From Escherichia coli 042 (GTDB lineage: Bacteria > Pseudomonadota > Gammaproteobacteria > Enterobacterales > Enterobacteriaceae), in assembly GCF_000027125.1 (NCBI RefSeq), contig NC_017626.1: DNA of 64,000 bases; one strand, given 5' to 3'. Below the pieces are notes generated by a model. That model saw only the letters and a program-made list of their open reading frames with translations, did no database searches and was not told the origin of the DNA. Both the position numbers and the translations under genes were made by a program. Each line of letters begins with the position of its first letter. The first letter of the stretch is position 1. This document shows positions 22,276 to 33,112 of the stretch, piece by piece.

Positions 22276-23916
22276 ATGGCAATCCACAATCGTGCAGGCC
22301 AACCTGCACAACAGAGTGATTTGATTAACGTCGCCCAACTGACGGCGCAATATTATGTACTGAAACCAGAAGCAGGGAATGCGGAGCACGCGGTGAAATT
22401 CGGTACTTCCGGTCACCGTGGCAGTGCAGCGCGCCACAGCTTTAACGAGCCGCACATTCTGGCGATCGCTCAGGCAATTGCTGAAGAACGTGCGAAAAAC
22501 GGCATCACTGGCCCTTGCTATGTGGGTAAAGATACTCACGCCCTGTCCGAGCCTGCGTTCATTTCCGTTCTGGAAGTGCTGGCAGCGAACGGCGTTGATG
22601 TCATTGTGCAGGAAAACAATGGCTTCACTCCGACACCTGCCATTTCCAATGCCATTCTGGTTCACAATAAAAAAGGTGGCCCGCTGGCAGACGGTATCGT
22701 GATTACACCGTCCCATAACCCGCCGGAAGATGGTGGTATCAAGTACAATCCGCCAAATGGTGGCCCGGCTGATACTAACGTCACCAAAGTGGTGGAAGAC
22801 AGGGCCAACGCACTGATGGCCGATGGCCTGAAAGGCGTGAAGCGTATCTCCCTCGACGAAGCGATGGCATCCGGTCATGTGAAAGAGCAGGATCTGGTGC
22901 AGCCGTTTGTGGAAGGGCTGGCCGATATCGTTGATATGGCGGCGATTCAGAAAGCGGGCCTGACGCTGGGCGTTGATCCGCTGGGTGGTTCCGGTATCGA
23001 ATACTGGAAGCGCATTGGCGAGTATTACAACCTCAACCTGACCATCGTTAACGATCAGGTCGATCAAACCTTCCGCTTTATGCACCTCGATAAAGACGGT
23101 GCGATCCGTATGGACTGCTCCTCCGAGTGTGCGATGGCGGGCCTGCTGGCACTGCGTGATAAGTTCGATCTGGCGTTTGCTAACGACCCGGATTATGACC
23201 GTCACGGTATCGTCACTCCGGCAGGTTTGATGAATCCGAACCACTACCTGGCGGTGGCGATCAACTACCTGTTCCAGCATCGTCCGCAGTGGGGCAAAGA
23301 TGTTGCTGTCGGTAAAACGCTGGTTTCATCTGCGATGATCGACCGTGTGGTCAATGACTTGGGCCGTAAGCTGGTAGAAGTCCCGGTAGGCTTCAAATGG
23401 TTTGTTGATGGTCTGTTCGACGGCAGCTTCGGCTTTGGCGGCGAAGAGAGCGCAGGGGCTTCCTTCCTGCGTTTCGACGGCACGCCGTGGTCCACCGATA
23501 AAGATGGCATCATTATGTGTCTGTTGGCGGCGGAAATCACCGCGGTCACCGGTAAGAACCCGCAGGAACACTACAACGAACTGGCAAAACGCTTTGGTGC
23601 GCCGAGCTACAACCGTTTGCAGGCAGCCGCGACTTCCGCACAAAAAGCGGCGCTGTCTAAACTGTCTCCGGAAATGGTGAGCGCCAGCACCCTGGCAGGT
23701 GACCCGATCACCGCGCGCCTGACCGCTGCGCCTGGCAACGGTGCTTCTATCGGCGGTCTGAAAGTGATGACTGACAACGGCTGGTTCGCCGCGCGTCCGT
23801 CAGGCACGGAAGACGCCTATAAGATCTATTGTGAAAGCTTCCTCGGGGAAGAACATCGCAAGCAGATTGAGAAAGAAGCGGTTGAGATTGTTAGCGAAGT
23901 TCTGAAAAACGCGTAA
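22276..23916 (+). CDS. pgm: Phosphoglucomutase, 546 aa
   Basis: [16 protein letters not shown] start; phosphoserine loop TPSHNP visible. Confidence 0.96.
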
Positions 23917-23930
23917 ACACATTTAATAAG

Positions 23931-23961
23931 AAAAAGGGCGGTCGGAAGATCGCCCTTTTTT
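23931..23961 (+). terminator. pgm rho-independent terminator
   Basis: AAAAAGGGCG-gtcggaagat-CGCCCTTTTTT. Confidence 0.75.
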
Positions 23962-23971
23962 ACTTATGATT

Positions 23972-24070
23972 GCCTGATGCGCTACGCTTATCAGGCCTGC
24001 GAGGATGGTGCAATATATTGAATTTGCGCTATTTTGTAGGCCGGATAAGGCGTTCACGCCGCATCCGGCA
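23972..24070. repeat. REP/BIME cluster between pgm and ybfP
   Basis: GCCTGATGCGCTACGCTTATCAGGCCT ... TAGGCCGGATAAGGCGTTCACGCCGCATCCGGCA. Confidence 0.8.
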
Positions 24071-24120
24071 TGAACAACGAGCACTTTGCCAACAAACTGA
24101 ATAGCTCAAGGGAATTCAAA

Positions 24121-24615
24121 ATGAAGACCAAAAGGAGTCTGGTCGTCAGAGTGGCATTAATTACCGCCACACTACTGCTGACAGCATGCGCCCAACCTGA
24201 ACAATCATCATTAGCTGGTGACTGGTTACTGACCCCTAAAGATAAAACCAGAGGATTAACGGGTAGCATTGCGGTAAATATTGCGCCTTCCCGGTGTAAG
24301 ACAAATTGCCGTGGCGATAACTTACCTGATAATACCCGCCGCTGGCAGTTGTCAGGCGGGAACGAAAAAGAACTTACTTATCTTCACGATATGTCACCAC
24401 AAGAAAAGAGCAGTTTAAATCGTGGCTGGCAGTGCTACACCTCATTTTTTATGCGGGTTTGCCAGGGCAAGCCTGGCACTCGACCGATTGTTAAAGAGGA
24501 TTATGTCAGCGAAAGCGGATTTTTTGGCTCGATGATGCATGTCGGGATTATTGAGTTGCGACGCTGCCAGTCAGAAAAATGCCAGCAAGAGTTGAAACAG
24601 ATAAATACGCATTAA
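24121..24615 (+). CDS. ybfP: Lipoprotein YbfP, 164 aa
   Basis: MKTKRSLVVRVALITATLLLTAC lipobox; ORF track includes upstream extension. Confidence 0.85.
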   Translation: MKTKRSLVVRVALITATLLLTACAQPEQSSLAGDWLLTPKDKTRGLTGSIAVNIAPSRCKTNCRGDNLPDNTRRWQLSGGNEKELTYLHDMSPQEKSSLNRGWQCYTSFFMRVCQGKPGTRPIVKEDYVSESGFFGSMMHVGIIELRRCQSEKCQQELKQINTH

Positions 24616-24646
24616 ACATATCGCGATGAGTGCCATGCCTGATGCG

Positions 24647-24717
24647 ACGCTGACGCGTCTTATCATGCCTACGGGACGATGTGTAGGCCGGATAAGGCGT
24701 TCACGCCGCATCCGGCA
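24647..24717. repeat. REP/BIME pair between ybfP and kdpE
   Basis: GCCTGATGCGACGCTGACGCGTCTTATCATGCCTAC ... TAGGCCGGATAAGGCGTTCACGCCGCATCCGGCA. Confidence 0.8.
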
Positions 24718-24726
24718 ATTCAGACC

Positions 24727-25404
24727 CTAAAGCATAAACCGATACCCAATACCGGTTTCAGTAATGAAGTGGCGGGGGCGGGCGGGATCCTGTTCCAGTT
24801 TTTGTCGCAGATGTCCCATATAAATACGCAAATAATGACTGTGTTCGACCGCGTTTGGCCCCCACACCTGGTTAAGGAGCTGGCGCTGGGTGAGCACTTT
24901 CCCGGCGTTATTCAGCAGCACCGCCAGCAGGCGGAACTCAATCGGGGTGAGATGCACCTCTTCCTCACCTCGATGGATCACACGAGCTGCTAAATCGACG
25001 GTAACATCGGAAAATTTCACCAGCGGATCGGGCGCGGTGGTGGCGGAGTGGCGGCGTAAAGCGACGCGCAGGCGGGCCTGCAATTCGCCAATACCAAATG
25101 GCTTACTCAGGTAATCATCCGCTCCGGCATCCAGCGCGGCGATTTTGTCGCTCTCTTCGCTACGTGCGGAAAGCACAATCACCGGCACCGCGCTCCACTG
25201 GCGCAGGTCGCGGATAAACTCAATCCCATCACCATCGGGCAGGCCGAGATCGAGAATAATCAAATCTGGCTTACGGGTTGCCGCTTCCAGCAAGCCGCGT
25301 TGCAGCGTTTCGGCCTCATAGACGCGCATACCGTCGCCCTCCAGCGCCGTGCGCAGAAAGCGACGAATAGCCTGTTCATCTTCAACAATCAGAACGTTTG
25401 TCAC
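24727..25404 (-). CDS. kdpE: Response regulator KdpE, 225 aa
   Basis: [17 protein letters not shown] receiver domain plus winged-helix output. Confidence 0.95.
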   Translation of the reverse strand: MTNVLIVEDEQAIRRFLRTALEGDGMRVYEAETLQRGLLEAATRKPDLIILDLGLPDGDGIEFIRDLRQWSAVPVIVLSARSEESDKIAALDAGADDYLSKPFGIGELQARLRVALRRHSATTAPDPLVKFSDVTVDLAARVIHRGEEEVHLTPIEFRLLAVLLNNAGKVLTQRQLLNQVWGPNAVEHSHYLRIYMGHLRQKLEQDPARPRHFITETGIGYRFML

Positions 25405-28085
25405 ATATCCTCATGAAATTCTTCAAGTTCAGGGGCAGTTTGCTGGGGAAGTGTAACACGAAAACAGGCACCACCTTCCGGTCGGTTGAACGCGGTAATG
25501 GTGCCGCCGTGTACATCCACAATCGCCCGACAAATTGCCAGCCCAAGCCCTACCCCCGGCACCGCCGACTCTTTATTCCCGCGAGCAAACTTATCAAATA
25601 TCGTCTGCTCCTGGCCTGGCGGAAGACCGGGGCCATTATCCCAGACATCCAGTTGTAGATTTTCGCCCTCAACGTGGGCATCGATACCAATTTCGGCCTG
25701 CGCACCCGCGTATTTCACCGCGTTCTCCAGCAGATTAATCAGCACCCGTTCAAACAGTGGCCCGTCAACGTGGATTAAGGTCAGCGGTTCTGGCAGAGAA
25801 AGATTGATGGGCGACGGTAAACTCGGTTCCAGCATTTGCAGCGCGCTGCCGACCACTTCTTCCAGCGTTAACCACTCTTTCTTCAAATTAAAGCCGCCGG
25901 ACTGAATTCGCGCCATATCCAGTAGATTATTCACCAGTCGGGTCGTGTTCAGCACATGCTGACGAATCTCGCTGGCCTGGCGGGCGTGGGGCGATCCTTC
26001 GCTCGCCAGATCGAGCGTTAAGATTTCTGCCTGACCGAACAGCACCGTAAGCGGCGTGCGTAAATCATGCGAAAGCGCCGCCAGCAGGGCGTTGCGGATC
26101 TGTTCTCGTTCGCTTGCCATCCGCGCCTGTTCTTCGCTGGCGGTCAGTGTCAGCCGCTCAAGGGCATTGGCGACTAACAGCGTAAACGTCTCCAGCAGGC
26201 GTTGCTGTTCCGGGATCATCAACTGGCGCAGATTCCCCGGTTCCACCACCACCAGCCCGTAGGTTTTCTCACCGCTTTTTAGCGGCAAAATCTGGTACGG
26301 TACACCGGGTAACGTGTCGGTGCCCGCGCCCGCAGGCAGGCCTTTATCAAAACTCCACTGCGCGATGGCATCGTCCCACGGCGTCATTCCTTGCGGATGT
26401 GTTAACGGCTGCAATTTACCGTTGTCATCGGGCAACAACACCTGACTGCGGGCATGAAACGTGGAGGCAATAAATTGTTCGCTGGTGGTGGCGATGTCCT
26501 GCGGACTGCGGCCCACCGCCAGAGCTTTCGACATTTCATATAAGTGCCGTGTGCGTTGCTCGCGGTAACGGGCTACCCGCGCCTGATAACGCACGCCAGC
26601 AGTAAGGTTCCCGATCACCAGCCCGACGGTTAACATCACCGCGAAGGTCAGCAGATATTGCACATCAGAGACGGCGAGCGTGCCGCGTGGGGCGATAAAA
26701 AAGAGATCGAAACTCACCACATTAATGACGGTGGCAACCACCGAAGGCCAGCGTCCATAAAATAGCGCCACCACCACCACGCCAAGCAGATACAGCATCA
26801 CCAGGTTGGCGGCATCAAACGCCATCAGCCACTGCATGGCAATTAAGGTGATAACGGCGCATAACGCGGCGGCAACCACGCATCCCTGAATCTGTACCCG
26901 CCACTTGTCTTTAAAAGAGCGGCTATCCGGCGCGTTGTTTATCGTGCGGGCGGGTGGTTCATCAAGCGCGACCAGCACCTGATCGAGATCGGGGGCGATT
27001 CGCGCCAGTCGGTCAGCAAACGTTTCCCGACGCCACCAGCGGCGCGAGGCCGGGCGACCGAGAATAATCTTGCCGAGATTATGTTCACGGGCATAACGCA
27101 CTACCGCTTTCTCTTCCGCTGGATCAGAAAGTGTTGCCGTCTCCGCGCCCAGCTCCTGCGCCAGACGTAAGGCGCTGAGAATTGCCCGACGTTTTTTCTC
27201 CGGTAAGCGGTGCAGGGCAGGGGTTTCAACATACACAGCGTGCCAGACGCTACCCAGCCGTGACGCCAGCCGCGCCGCCGCGCGGACCAGTTTTTCGCTG
27301 CCGGTGTTATGGCCGATGCATAAAAGGATCGCGTCGCGCGTGTGCCAGACTTTCTCTTCGCCAGGATGCCCCCGCCAGGCGCGCATTTGCTCATCAACGC
27401 GATCGGCAGTACGGCGCAGTGCCAGTTCGCGCAGGGCGATCAGATTACCTTTACGAAAAAAATGTTCAATGGCGCGTTCCGCCTGCCCGGCAATATAGAC
27501 TTTACCTTCTTTCAGCCGTTGACGCAGATCGTCCGGGGGCAAGTCCACCAGCACCACGTCGTCGGCGGCATCGAAAAAAGGATCGGGCACGGTTTCCCGT
27601 ACCTGAATTCCGGTGACGCCGCTGACCACATCATTCAGACTTTCCAGATGCTGAACGTTGACGGTTGTGAAAACATCAATGCCAGCTTCCAGCAGCTCTT
27701 CGATGTCCTGCCAGCGTTTAGGATGACGAGAACCTGGCGCATTACTGTGCGCCAGTTCGTCCATTAAGATCAGCGCCGGACGGCGGGCGAGGGCGGCATC
27801 GAGATCAAACTCGCTGATATGCCGCCCACGGTACGCCTGGCGTTTGGGCGGTAGAACAGCCAGCCCTTCCAGCATTGCGGCGGTATCTTTCCGCCCGTGG
27901 GTTTCAACCACGCCAACCACAATATCCAGCCCTTGCGCCCGCAGTCGCTGGGCTTCTGCCAGCATCGCCCAGGTCTTTCCGACGCCCGCACAGGCACCGA
28001 AGAAAACTTTCAGCTTCCCCCGATGCGGCGCGGCAGTTTGTTCCAGCAGACGATCGGGGTCGGGACGTAAGGGTTCGTTATTCAT
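25401..28085 (-). CDS. kdpD: Sensor histidine kinase KdpD, 894 aa
   Basis: [16 protein letters not shown] start at ATG 28083-28085; Walker [10 protein letters not shown] in the N-terminal KdpD domain; 4-nt overlap with kdpE. Confidence 0.95.
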
Positions 28086-28650
28086 CAAGCTTATCCAGCG
28101 CCAGATTGAGTTCGACAATGTTGACGACCGGCTGGCCGATATATTTCACCAGCGGTTGTTTGCTGTATTTTGCGATCAGTTGCGTGAGCTGTTCAACGCT
28201 GAGATTACGCGCTTTCGCCACGCGTGGGATCTGCCAGGCTGCCGCTTGCGGGGTGATGTTATTGTCCAGCCCGCTTGCCGATGCCGTCACCAGTTCAACC
28301 GGAACGTTCGCGCTGGCATCAGGGTTAGCGGCCCGTAATGCAGCAACGCGTGCGGCTATTAGTTTATCCAGCTCAGGGTTACTGACCGCCAGATTGCTCC
28401 CGCCAGAAGCCTGTGGATTATAGGGCATTTCTGCCGTTGCCGACGGGCGACCATGAAAATAGCCGTTGCCGGTAAAATTCTGCCCGATTAATGCCGAACC
28501 GCGCACCGTATCACCTTCACGGATCAACGAACCGTTGGCCTGCCAGGGAAACCACCATTGCCCCAGCGCGGTGGTTAGCAGCGGGTAAACGCCGCCAGTA
28601 ATCAATAACAGAAAGATAAATGTCGATAATGCCGGACGTAATCCACGCAT
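28078..28650 (-). CDS. kdpC: K+-transporting ATPase subunit KdpC, 190 aa
   Basis: [25 protein letters not shown]; start chosen at ATG 28648-28650. Confidence 0.93.
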
Positions 28651-28658
28651 GGTAAACC

Positions 28659-30707
28659 TCACACCAGACCGCAAACGGTCAGCAGTAAATCAATGACTTT
28701 GATACCAATAAACGGCACCAGCAGCCCACCCAGACCATAAATCCATAAGTTACGGCGCAACATGGCAGAAGCGGTAAGCGGTTTATAACTCACGCCTTTT
28801 AACGCCAGGGGAATCAAAAAGACGATAATCAAGGCGTTGAAAATCACTGCACTGAGGATTGCGGAGTCGGGCGAATGCAGGCGCATGATGTTCAGCGCAT
28901 TTAACTGCGGATACGTTGCCGCGAATGCCGCCGGAATAATGGCGAAGTATTTCGCCACATCGTTGGCAATGCTGAAGGTGGTCAGCGAGCCACGGGTCAT
29001 CAGCATCTGTTTGCCAATATGTACCACCTCGATCAACTTGGTCGGGTTAGAGTCGAGATCCACCATATTGCCCGCTTCTTTCGCCGCCTGAGTACCGGAG
29101 TTCATCGCCACCGCGACATCTGCCTGCGCCAGCGCCGGAGCATCGTTGGTGCCATCGCCGGTCATCGCCACTAAACGGCCTTCTGCCTGATACTGACGAA
29201 TCAATGCTAGCTTGGCCTCCGGTGTCGCTTCGGCGAGGAAATCATCGACGCCCGCTTCCGCAGCAATCGCGGCGGCAGTCAGACGGTTATCGCCGGTAAT
29301 CATCACCGTTTTAATGCCCATTTTACGCAACTGCGCGAAGCGCTCTTTAATACCGCCTTTGACGATATCTTTCAGCGCAATAACGCCAAGCACATGGGAG
29401 CCTTCTACTACTACCAGCGGCGTGGCTCCCTGACGCGCAACCTGATCGACTTTTTGATCAACATCGGCAGGGAAGTGACCACCGTTAGCCTCAACATGGC
29501 GGCGAATGGCATCGACAGAACCTTTACGGATCATGCGGTTGTCGATGTTGATCCCGCTCATCCGGCTTTGCGCAGTAAACGGTACAAAGGTGGCATGGAG
29601 CGACTGCACATCGCGCTCGCGCAGGTTAAAACGTTGCTTGGCGAGGATCACAATACTGCGGCCTTCCGGCGTTTCATCAGCCAGCGAAGCCAGTTGTGCG
29701 GCGTCAGCCAGCGTTTTTTCATCCACGCCCTGTGCAGGGATAAACTCCGACGCCTGACGGTTACCGAGTGTGATGGTGCCGGTTTTATCCAGCAGCAGGA
29801 CGTCAACGTCACCCGCCGCTTCAACTGCACGTCCGCTGGTGGCAATCACATTCGCGCCCAGCATCCGACTCATCCCGGCGACGCCGATCGCTGACAACAG
29901 GCCGCCAATAGTGGTTGGGATCAGACAGACCAGCAGCGCCACCAGTACCGTTACACTGACTGCATTACCGCCCCACGCGGAAAACGGCCACAGCGTGGCG
30001 GTTGCCAGTAAAAAGACGATAGTCAGGGCAATCAGCAGGATGGTCAGGGCAATCTCGTTCGGCGTTTTACGTCGCTGTGCGCCTTCCACCATCGCGATCA
30101 TCCGATCCAGAAATGTCTCGCCGGGGTTAACGCTACACTCAATCACCAGCCAGTCAGAAAGAATACGCGTGCCGCCAGTGACGGAGGCAAAATCGCCGCC
30201 GGATTCACGGATCACCGGTGCCGATTCCCCGGTGATGGCGCTTTCATCGACCGATGCGCCCCCTTCAATGACTTCACCATCGCAGGGGATAATATCGCCA
30301 GCTTCCACCAGTACGATATCGCCTTTACGCAGTTGATCGGCGGGAACTTTGTCCGCCGCAGCGCCATATTTCGGCTCACGCAGCTTGCGGGCAAAGGCAG
30401 TTTTTTTCACCCCTTTCAGACTGTTGGCCTGCGCTTTACTGCGGCCTTCTGCCAGCGCCTCGGCGAAATTAGCGAACAGTACGGTGACCCACAGCCAGCC
30501 GCTAATTGCCGCGCTAAACAGCGCATTGCCAGGCATCGCACCGCTTGCCATTGCGATGCAAATACAGGTGGTCAGCAGACTGCCGATCCAGACGATAAAC
30601 ATCACCGGATTGCGCCATTGCGCCTGCGGGTTTAATTTTTTCACCGCTTCTTTCAGCGCCTGAACGACAAGTGTTGGTTCGAATAGCGCCAGTTGTTTAC
30701 GACTCAT
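28659..30707 (-). CDS. kdpB: K+-transporting P-type ATPase catalytic subunit KdpB, 682 aa
   Basis: P-type ATPase motifs DKTGT and GDGTND visible. Confidence 0.96.
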
Positions 30708-30729: not shown

Positions 30730-32403
30730 TCAGGAGAGATATTCCGCCACCGGACCAAGCGCCAGGGCAGGGATAAAGGTCAGTGCGCCAACCAGCAACA
30801 CGGTGCCGATTAACAGGCCAACAAACAGCGGGCCGTGCGTTGGCAGCGTGCCGGAGCTGGCGGGTTGGCTCTTTTTACTCACCAGCGAACCGGCAATTGC
30901 CATCACCGGGATAATCACCCCGAAGCGACCGACAAACATGCAGAACGCCAGTAAACAGTTCCAGAACGGAGAGTTGGCGCTTAATCCGGCAAAGGCGCTG
31001 CCGTTGTTGTTAGCGGCGGATGACACGGCGTACAGCACTTCGCTAAAACCATGCGGGCCAGGGTTGAGCATGGCGCTACGTCCGGCGTCGGTCATCATCG
31101 CCAACGCCGCGCCCATCAGCACCAGCGTCGGGGTAACCAGAATTGCCAGTGCAGTCAGTTTCATCTCGCGTACGTCGATTTTTTTACCCAGATATTCCGG
31201 TGTACGACCAATCATCAGCCCGGCAATAAACACCGCCAGCAGAACAAACAGCATCATGCCGTAAAGACCAGAACCGACACCGCCGAATACCACTTCACCA
31301 ATTTGCATCAGCCACATCGGCACCATGCCACCGAGAGCGGTAAACGAATCATGCATCGCAATCACCGCGCCACAGGAAGCCGCCGTAGTCACGACCGCAA
31401 ACAGGCTACTGACCAGCACGCCGAAACGGCTCTCTTTACCTTCCATATTGATGCTGCTGTCCGCGCCCAGTGCCAGCAGATGAGGATTACCCTGAACTTC
31501 TGCCCACATCACCACGCCTACGCAGATGACAAAAATCATCGACATCGCCCACAGCAACATGCGCCCCTGACGGTGATCGCCCGCCACTTCGCCAAAGGCA
31601 AAGCACAGCGCTGTTGGGATCAAGAAAATCGCCAGCATTTGCACGAAGTTGGTCAGTGCGGTTGGGTTTTCAAACGGATGCGACGAGTTGGCATTAAAAA
31701 AGCCACCGCCGTTAGTTCCGAGCATTTTGATCGCTTCCTGAGAAGCTACTGGCCCCATTGGTAACAGCTGTTGCGCTCCTTCAATGGTCGTCACAGCCTG
31801 ATAAGGCAAAAAGTTTTGCAGCGCGCCTTGTTGTATAAAAAACAGTGCGATCAGCAATGCTACGGGGGTTAACACCCATAACGTAATCCGCAACAGGTCT
31901 ACCCACGCATTACCCAGCGTGTTCATGCTCTGGCGGGTAAACGCGCGAATAAGCGCAAAAATCACCGCAATCCCGCTGGCGGCAGAAAGAAAGTTTTGTA
32001 CCGTTAGGCCTGCCATCTGGCTGAAATAGCTCAACGTGGTTTCACCGCTGTATGACTGCCAGTTGGTATTTGTGACGAAACTGACCGCGGTATTCAGTGC
32101 CAGATCCCATGACAGTCCCGGCAACTGCTGCGGATTAAGCGGCAGATAGTGCTGACCGAGCAACATAAAAAACAGCACCGCCAGCCCCAGCATATTCAGG
32201 CCAAGAATGGCTGAGAGATACTGCTTCCAGTTCATCTCGCGGTCAGAGACGCCAAGCGCGCGAAAAAGTACGCGCTCAACGCCCGTCGTACCGGGAAGAG
32301 GAATGTCATTAATCAGCCGCGCCAGCCCGCTGCCTAAAGGACGCGCCAGCACCATTAACACCAGTAAAAACGTGGCAATCAGTAAGAACCCTTGCGCAGC
32401 CAT
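30730..32403 (-). CDS. kdpA: K+-transporting ATPase subunit KdpA, 557 aa
   Basis: [19 protein letters not shown] start; ORF track 605-aa call is an upstream extension running through kdpF. Confidence 0.95.
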
Positions 32404-32492
32404 CAGAACGCCTCCGCATTGATCAGGGCATAAACCAGATAACCCAGTAATAAAAACACCAGCAACACGCCGGCTATCACGCCTGCACTCAC
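32403..32492 (-). CDS. kdpF: KdpF, 29-aa hydrophobic subunit of the Kdp complex (GTG start)
   Basis: GTG-initiated [29 protein letters not shown] preceded by GGAGGTG; stop overlaps kdpA ATG by 1 nt. Confidence 0.85.
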
Positions 32493-32573
32493 AGTGCACC
32501 TCCAGTGGCCTAAAAGTGATACCGGAAGGGTAGAATTCTGGCTGCAAAGATTTCGCAAAAATCTTCGGGCGGG

Positions 32574-32596
32574 ATGTAAAAAAAGTATAAAAATGG
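32574..32596 (-). promoter_or_regulatory. KdpE binding site / kdpFABC promoter region
   Basis: Minus strand reads TTTTTATACTTTTTTTACA (TTTATA-N-TTTACA direct repeat) roughly 85-105 nt upstream of kdpF. Confidence 0.55.
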
Positions 32597-32804
32597 CAAA
32601 AGCCATGATTTAACTAATGTTTAGTATTAATTTAACTTTTGTGTAACTTAATTACAGGGTGAATGTAAATAAACCATCAATAAGCAAAAATAAGTGGTCG
32701 GATGAGTAGTAAAATTACACAAAAGGCGGTACTATTTTCATCAGATAAACAAATTCATTTTTCCGGTGCCATTCACCGGGTAGATACAAAAGGGGGAGAA
32801 AAGT

Positions 32805-33011
32805 ATGGAACTCTACAGAGAATATCCTGCATGGCTTATCTTTTTACGCCGTACTTATGCGGTTGCAGCGGGCGTTCTGGCGCTGCCTTTCATGCTTTTC
32901 TGGAAAGACCGCGCCCGCTTTTACAGCTACCTGCACCGCGTCTGGTCGAAAACCAGCGATAAACCGGTGTGGATGGATCAGGCCGAAAAGGCAACTGGTG
33001 ATTTTTACTGA
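32805..33011 (+). CDS. ybfA: YbfA (DUF2517 small protein), 68 aa
   Basis: [68 protein letters not shown]. Confidence 0.88.
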
Positions 33012-33034
33012 TTGCTGAGTTCTGAATACATTGA

Positions 33035-33068
33035 AAACCGCCAGCGGAAACGCTGGCGGTTTTTTTCT
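33035..33068 (+). terminator. ybfA rho-independent terminator
   Basis: ACCGCCAGCG-gaaa-CGCTGGCGGT followed by TTTTTTT. Confidence 0.8.
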
Positions 33069-33112
33069 TTTCGCCGTCTACACTTACTCCTGTAAACCGT
33101 TCAGGAGCAGTA

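Follow-up and report, generated by a model that had tools for sequence, protein, structure and literature searches.

Start and control region of the kdpFABCDE operon in Escherichia coli 042

Which reading frame opens the kdp operon of E. coli 042, and what kind of DNA lies in front of it, is a question raised by the open reading frames (ORFs) themselves: within the 64-kb window, which is the whole stretch of DNA that was analysed, mechanical ORF calling masks the 29-aa kdpF with two spurious ORFs, a 605-aa kdpA and one of 67 aa. The span 32403-32600 almost certainly represents the canonical kdpFABCDE operon of E. coli at its 5′ end, together with the control region, and no observation spoke against this reading. 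The start of this operon is already known; its biology stands in textbooks, its annotation is a routine matter, and the relevance of the present analysis is one of annotation quality control only. The kdp control region of this strain is intact and essentially that of K-12, and knowledge of Kdp regulation is unchanged by it.

The first gene and the gene junctions

All six kdp genes lie on the minus strand, and two Shine-Dalgarno sites precede the first two of them:

32499..32503, minus strand: Shine-Dalgarno site GGAGG of kdpF, with a 6-nt spacer to the GTG
32403..32492, minus strand: kdpF, GTG start at 32492..32490, 29 codons, TGA stop at 32405..32403
32411..32415, minus strand: Shine-Dalgarno site GGAGG of kdpA, inside kdpF codons 26-28 and 7 nt before the kdpA ATG
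30730..32403, minus strand: kdpA, ATG start at 32403..32401, 557 aa, 1-nt overlap with kdpF
28659..30707, minus strand: kdpB, 682 aa, 22-nt gap after kdpA
28078..28650, minus strand: kdpC, 190 aa, 8-nt gap after kdpB
25401..28085, minus strand: kdpD, 894 aa, 8-nt overlap with kdpC
24727..25404, minus strand: kdpE, GTG start, 225 aa, 4-nt overlap (GTGA) with kdpD

The product of the first frame is a member of the KdpF family, as it exceeds all three curated cut-offs, scoring 74.3 bits against 56 on NCBIfam NF011332, 31.5 against 26.85 on NCBIfam TIGR02115 and 27.8 against 21.2 on Pfam PF09604. With a GRAVY value of 1.98 over its 29 aa, it also has the character by which the family is defined, namely a length of about 25-31 aa, one hydrophobic helix and a position directly 5′ of kdpA on the same strand. 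When compared with the 29-residue chain 6hra_D of the solved KdpFABC complex, 28 of the 29 residues were identical, and this near-identity to the chain in PDB 6hra and 5mrw suggests that the window protein would be a physical part of KdpFABC. The GGAGG in front of kdpF was also kept in Superficieibacter and in the enterobacterial MAG L067 in a cross-genome comparison. The proposal of a GTG-initiated, 29-aa KdpF, which had been made in a sequence-only reading of the window, is borne out by the K-12 annotation, the family cut-offs and the PDB chain.

Absence of the kdpF frame from relatives had been named as one observation that would speak against this proposal. In a cross-phylum survey, one genome per species was scanned with a conserved kdpA peptide pattern, which yielded 120 loci from many phyla, and the upstream region could be evaluated at 75 of the 120. 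A short hydrophobic ORF was found upstream of kdpA in 72 of these 75 loci, and a KdpF-like C-terminal motif in 68 (about 70 by eye), so that a KdpF-like ORF is present in 68-70 of the 75 loci. The 1-nt kdpF-kdpA overlap seen in the window recurred in 17 surveyed loci and a 4-nt overlap occurred in 8; such counts of ORF presence, gap and overlap are free of circularity from the choice of start. The KdpF-like ORF was exactly 29 aa long in 47 of the 68 loci and GTG was the likely kdpF start in 29 surveyed loci, counts that are partly circular because the survey starts were picked for the length nearest 29 aa.

The same sequence-only reading had described chained overlaps running through the operon. 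Its three overlaps, of 1 nt between kdpF and kdpA, 8 nt between kdpC and kdpD and 4 nt between kdpD and kdpE, are all exact in the sequence, and three of the five junctions do overlap; the chain, however, is broken by the 22-nt gap between kdpA and kdpB and the 8-nt gap between kdpB and kdpC. The geometry of translational coupling, in which a stop codon overlaps or adjoins the next start codon and a Shine-Dalgarno site lies in the upstream gene, was found at the F/A, C/D and D/E junctions and not at A/B or B/C. At the first junction, the base A at 32403 is common to the kdpF TGA and the kdpA ATG (TGATG). Ribosomes would initiate kdpF at its GTG through the GGAGG 6 nt upstream, giving a 29-residue, single-helix KdpF, and termination at TGATG with a GGAGG 7 nt upstream would favour termination-reinitiation coupling of kdpA. 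Translation of kdpA may reasonably be taken to be coupled to that of kdpF on the strength of the overlap and the embedded Shine-Dalgarno geometry. The overlap geometry likewise suggests that kdpD and kdpE may be coupled to the genes upstream of them, and the 8-nt kdpC/kdpD and 4-nt kdpD/kdpE overlaps could in this way couple the regulators to read-through translation.

Two longer ORFs compete with these boundaries. The kdpF frame is open for 39 codons 5′ of the GTG, and a 67-aa ORF at 32403..32606, with an ATG start at 32606, would make the true product of this frame an N-terminally extended KdpF. We give this product next to no chance: its ATG precedes both the KdpE operator and the promoter and so falls outside the induced transcript, the KdpF family models cover only residues 40-67, and KdpF as solved in structures is 29 residues long. 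Moreover, an in-frame stop stands 1-4 codons before the kdpF start in Providencia, Superficieibacter, MAG L067 and Morganella, while the ATG at 32606 is a GTG in E. coli L102 and is absent in the other genera compared.

The second, a 605-aa ORF at 30730..32547 in the ORF list, has a TTG start and lies in the kdpA frame. The earlier statement that kdpF is merged into this ORF is incorrect, since the two frames differ (offset 2) and kdpF is overlapped and hidden rather than fused. The accompanying advice to reject a 605-aa KdpA was right: such an ORF exists mechanically, but the chance that it is the protein is negligible, given that the TTG at 32547 is upstream of the predicted transcription start, that the 48-aa extension has no family match, that the 557-aa KdpA chains in the PDB align to residues 49-605 only, that kdpA-frame stops occur 5-11 codons before the ATG in Providencia, Superficieibacter, MAG L067 and Morganella, and that kdpA is annotated as 557 aa in K-12 and in strain C4. 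A family search with the N-terminal extensions of both the 67-aa and the 605-aa ORF returned no match; as products, a 605-aa KdpA and a 67-aa KdpF were both rejected as artefacts, each of them starting upstream of the predicted transcription start. The kdpF GTG at 32492 and the kdpA ATG at 32403 are retained as the starts.

The KdpE operator and the promoter

K+ limitation leads to autophosphorylation of KdpD and from there to KdpE~P, whose binding to the half-sites S1 and S2 activates kdpFABC. The KdpE~P dimer binds head-to-tail on TTTATA/TTTACA, 11 bp from centre to centre, and activates a weak sigma-70 promoter downstream. The corresponding elements of the window are the following:

32575..32591, minus strand: KdpE operator TTTATACTTTTTTTACA, with S1 TTTATA at 32591..32586, the 5-bp spacer CTTTT and S2 TTTACA at 32580..32575
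32566..32595, minus strand: equivalent of the 30-bp oligonucleotide kdpFABC_BS, containing the 23-bp DNase I footprint, placed by alignment to K-12
32527..32558, minus strand: putative weak core promoter, with TTGCGA at 32558..32553 and TACCCT at 32532..32527, 20 nt apart

The half-sites S1 TTTATA and S2 TTTACA, 5 bp apart, were defined by footprinting, EMSA and mutagenesis, the TTTA cores being essential and the 23-bp footprint extending from -72 to -50 (PMC3264566); the kdpFABC_BS footprint itself goes back to Sugiura et al. 1992, as cited in PMC3264566. In K-12, genomic SELEX identified the kdpF/ybfA spacer as the only target of KdpE~P (PMC5934670). The direct repeat upstream of kdpF in the window, which had been proposed as the KdpE site, has half-sites identical to the experimentally defined S1 and S2 (PMC3264566). 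A search for the motif TTTATA-N5-TTTACA, which had been suggested as a check, gave a single, exact match in the 64-kb window, against an expectation of 0.01 for an exact match and 0.23 with one mismatch allowed. One base in the 30-mer differs from K-12, a T for C at 32574, which lies directly 3′ of S2 and inside the minimal 21-bp binding fragment. The distance from the operator to the kdpF GTG is the same as in K-12, and the alignment between them is free of indels, which would give the operator its K-12 position relative to the transcription start as well.

Conservation of the operator was also seen in other genomes, where it stands 96-100 nt before kdpF begins, unchanged in Providencia, with one spacer change in MAG L067, and also in another E. 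coli. Variant operators occur in Superficieibacter (TTTACG) and Morganella, and the flanking sequence diverges across genera. The KdpE of the window has the phospho-acceptor D52 and the DNA-contact residues R193, R200 and T215, and F29Y is its sole change relative to K-12 KdpE. Binding of KdpE~P at the window allele is to be expected, by extension from the EMSA, footprinting and SELEX data on the K-12 sequence. Judged from its sequence, the locus shows everything that Kdp signalling would need to run unchanged in this strain.

The T-rich repeat might alternatively be mere A/T-rich DNA, such as a UP-like element or curved DNA, that resembles a KdpE box by chance. Its intergenic surroundings are indeed very A/T-rich, and with one mismatch allowed a match to the motif appeared in 22 of 100 shuffles of the window. 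An exact match, however, is expected only 0.01 times, and the repeat equals the experimentally defined KdpE site base for base, lies at the K-12 distance from kdpF and is kept across genera while its flanks diverge, which together leave a chance resemblance extremely improbable. We take the repeat to be the KdpE operator.

A scan of 32350..32850 for consensus sigma-70 promoters found no promoter-like site, which agrees with an activator-dependent promoter. A TAnnnT hexamer is present at the same alignment position as TACCCT in five of five other genomes compared. In an engineered promoter derivative, the half-sites occupy positions -67..-62 and -56..-51 (bioRxiv 10.1101/256826). Back-calculation from the published half-site and footprint coordinates places the probable transcription start at ~32520-32524, downstream of TACCCT; it is given as a range because two published coordinate systems put it 2-4 nt apart. 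The mRNA would accordingly begin ~28-32 nt before the kdpF GTG.

At a permissive threshold, Rfam returned no RNA family in 32350..32850, and hence no riboswitch or leader RNA. Two terminator-like hits, at 32474..32458 (inside kdpF) and 32606..32593, were set aside, as their stems have only 5-7 pairs and lack supporting context. At the second hit, a small inverted repeat ATGGC-TTTT-GCCAT, ATGGCTTTTGCCAT, at 32593-32606 on the minus strand and flagged as terminator-like, abuts S1 and runs into its T-tract. At the equivalent position in Morganella, an upstream gene running in the same direction ends in a strong terminator hairpin that stands right against the KdpE site.

The ybfA spacer and the flanking DNA

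The gene divergent from kdpF is ybfA, which encodes a 68-aa membrane protein of the DUF2517 family and adjoins kdpF in Escherichia, Superficieibacter, the enterobacterial MAG and Providencia. The spacer that it shares with kdpF contains a further conserved element:

32718..32693, minus strand: 26-nt non-coding block GTAATTTTACTACTCATCCGACCACT, between kdpF and ybfA

Superficieibacter and MAG L067 have this block without any change, and Providencia has it with two bases changed. In all of these a divergent ybfA homologue accompanies it; in Morganella, which has no ybfA at this place, the block is missing. A functional or regulatory tie of YbfA to Kdp through the shared spacer can be imagined from this arrangement, but we regard it as improbable; the block is more probably just a promoter or regulatory element of ybfA in a syntenic region. 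In the literature examined, only two items linked ybfA with kdp, namely the SELEX peak in their common spacer and Ssr3, a predicted sRNA of Shigella. The latter, predicted in Shigella flexneri and RT-PCR-positive, is placed in the ybfA-kdpA interval, on the strand of kdpA (PMC4782007), and it is probably unannotated kdpF mRNA with its leader rather than an sRNA.

The surroundings of the operon differ from those in K-12 on both sides. At 24616-24727, between a ybfP-like ORF (24070..24615) and kdpE, ~5.1 kb of K-12 sequence (ybfG′, ybfI′, potE, speF and speFL) is absent, and kdpE comes immediately after pgm-ybfP, an arrangement also present in strain C4. K-12 carries, as the pseudogene ybfI, a copy of the 3′ end of kdpE at 89% identity, and this copy has the look of a scar left by the speF-potE insertion. 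Short repeats that are probably REP-like, with ~39 matching places per E. coli genome, lie between pgm and kdpE (23916-24727). On the other side, at 33012-33112 between ybfA and ybgA, ~9.6 kb of K-12 sequence with the rhsC element (rhsC, ybfB, ybfO′, ybfC, ybfQ, ybfL′ and ybfD) is absent, and ybfA is followed directly by ybgA-phr. The ybfA-ybgA interval of strain C4 holds small orphan ORFs, including a CDI immunity protein. Elsewhere in the window, Rfam matches above the gathering scores comprise three naRNA4 (CssrE), one ES036 (CssrF) and a cluster of seven tRNAs, at 52420-52585 (-), 56913-56983 (+), 8305-8347 (+) and 4845-5546 (-).

Comparison with K-12 and other known kdp systems

Among 5,426 complete E. 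coli genomes, the span from ybfA to kdpA (about 441-451 bp) was present at an identity of at least 95% in 5,422-5,423, and kdpF was annotated in all of the matches listed. The closest complete genome is that of strain C4, in which the kdp genes have the same lengths, start codons and boundaries and the pgm-kdpE junction matches at 100% identity. In E. coli strain S51 (NZ_CP015995.1), the match upstream of kdp is interrupted near position 32626 of the window, ~35 nt before the KdpE site is reached, and resumes elsewhere in the record, which suggests an insertion or rearrangement.

An alignment with the K-12 locus had been named as the way to check the gene starts, and in it all six kdp genes agreed in length, in start codon and in their boundaries. 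The reference is kdpFABCDE of E. coli K-12 MG1655 (b4513 and b0698-b0694, NC_000913.3 721056..728821), with which the window shares the gene order, the six starts and stops, GTG as the start codon of kdpF and kdpE, and the five junction geometries, as well as both half-sites of the operator, the Shine-Dalgarno sites and the hexamers TTGCGA and TACCCT. Gene by gene, the nucleotide sequences are 95.6-97.8% identical, and the genes are without internal stops. The amino-acid changes relative to K-12 are T7A in KdpF, which is also found in E. coli L102, and F29Y in KdpE, together with 10 in KdpA, 5 in KdpB, 4 in KdpC and 5 in KdpD; the kdpE stop codon is TAG in the window and TGA in K-12. Over a 451-bp alignment that runs from the beginning of ybfA through the intergenic region and kdpF into the first part of kdpA, five bases differ, two in kdpF and three in the intergenic region; the half-sites, promoter hexamers, Shine-Dalgarno sites and start codons are all free of these differences.

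When set against the experimentally characterised kdpFABC_BS (PMC3264566), the window has the same direct repeats, spacer length, TTTA cores and three bases 5′ of S1, and it differs by a C-to-T transition at the single base 3′ of S2. The solved KdpF proteins (PDB 5mrw, 6hra and others) have 29 residues that form a single hydrophobic helix, from which the KdpF of the window differs by T7A.
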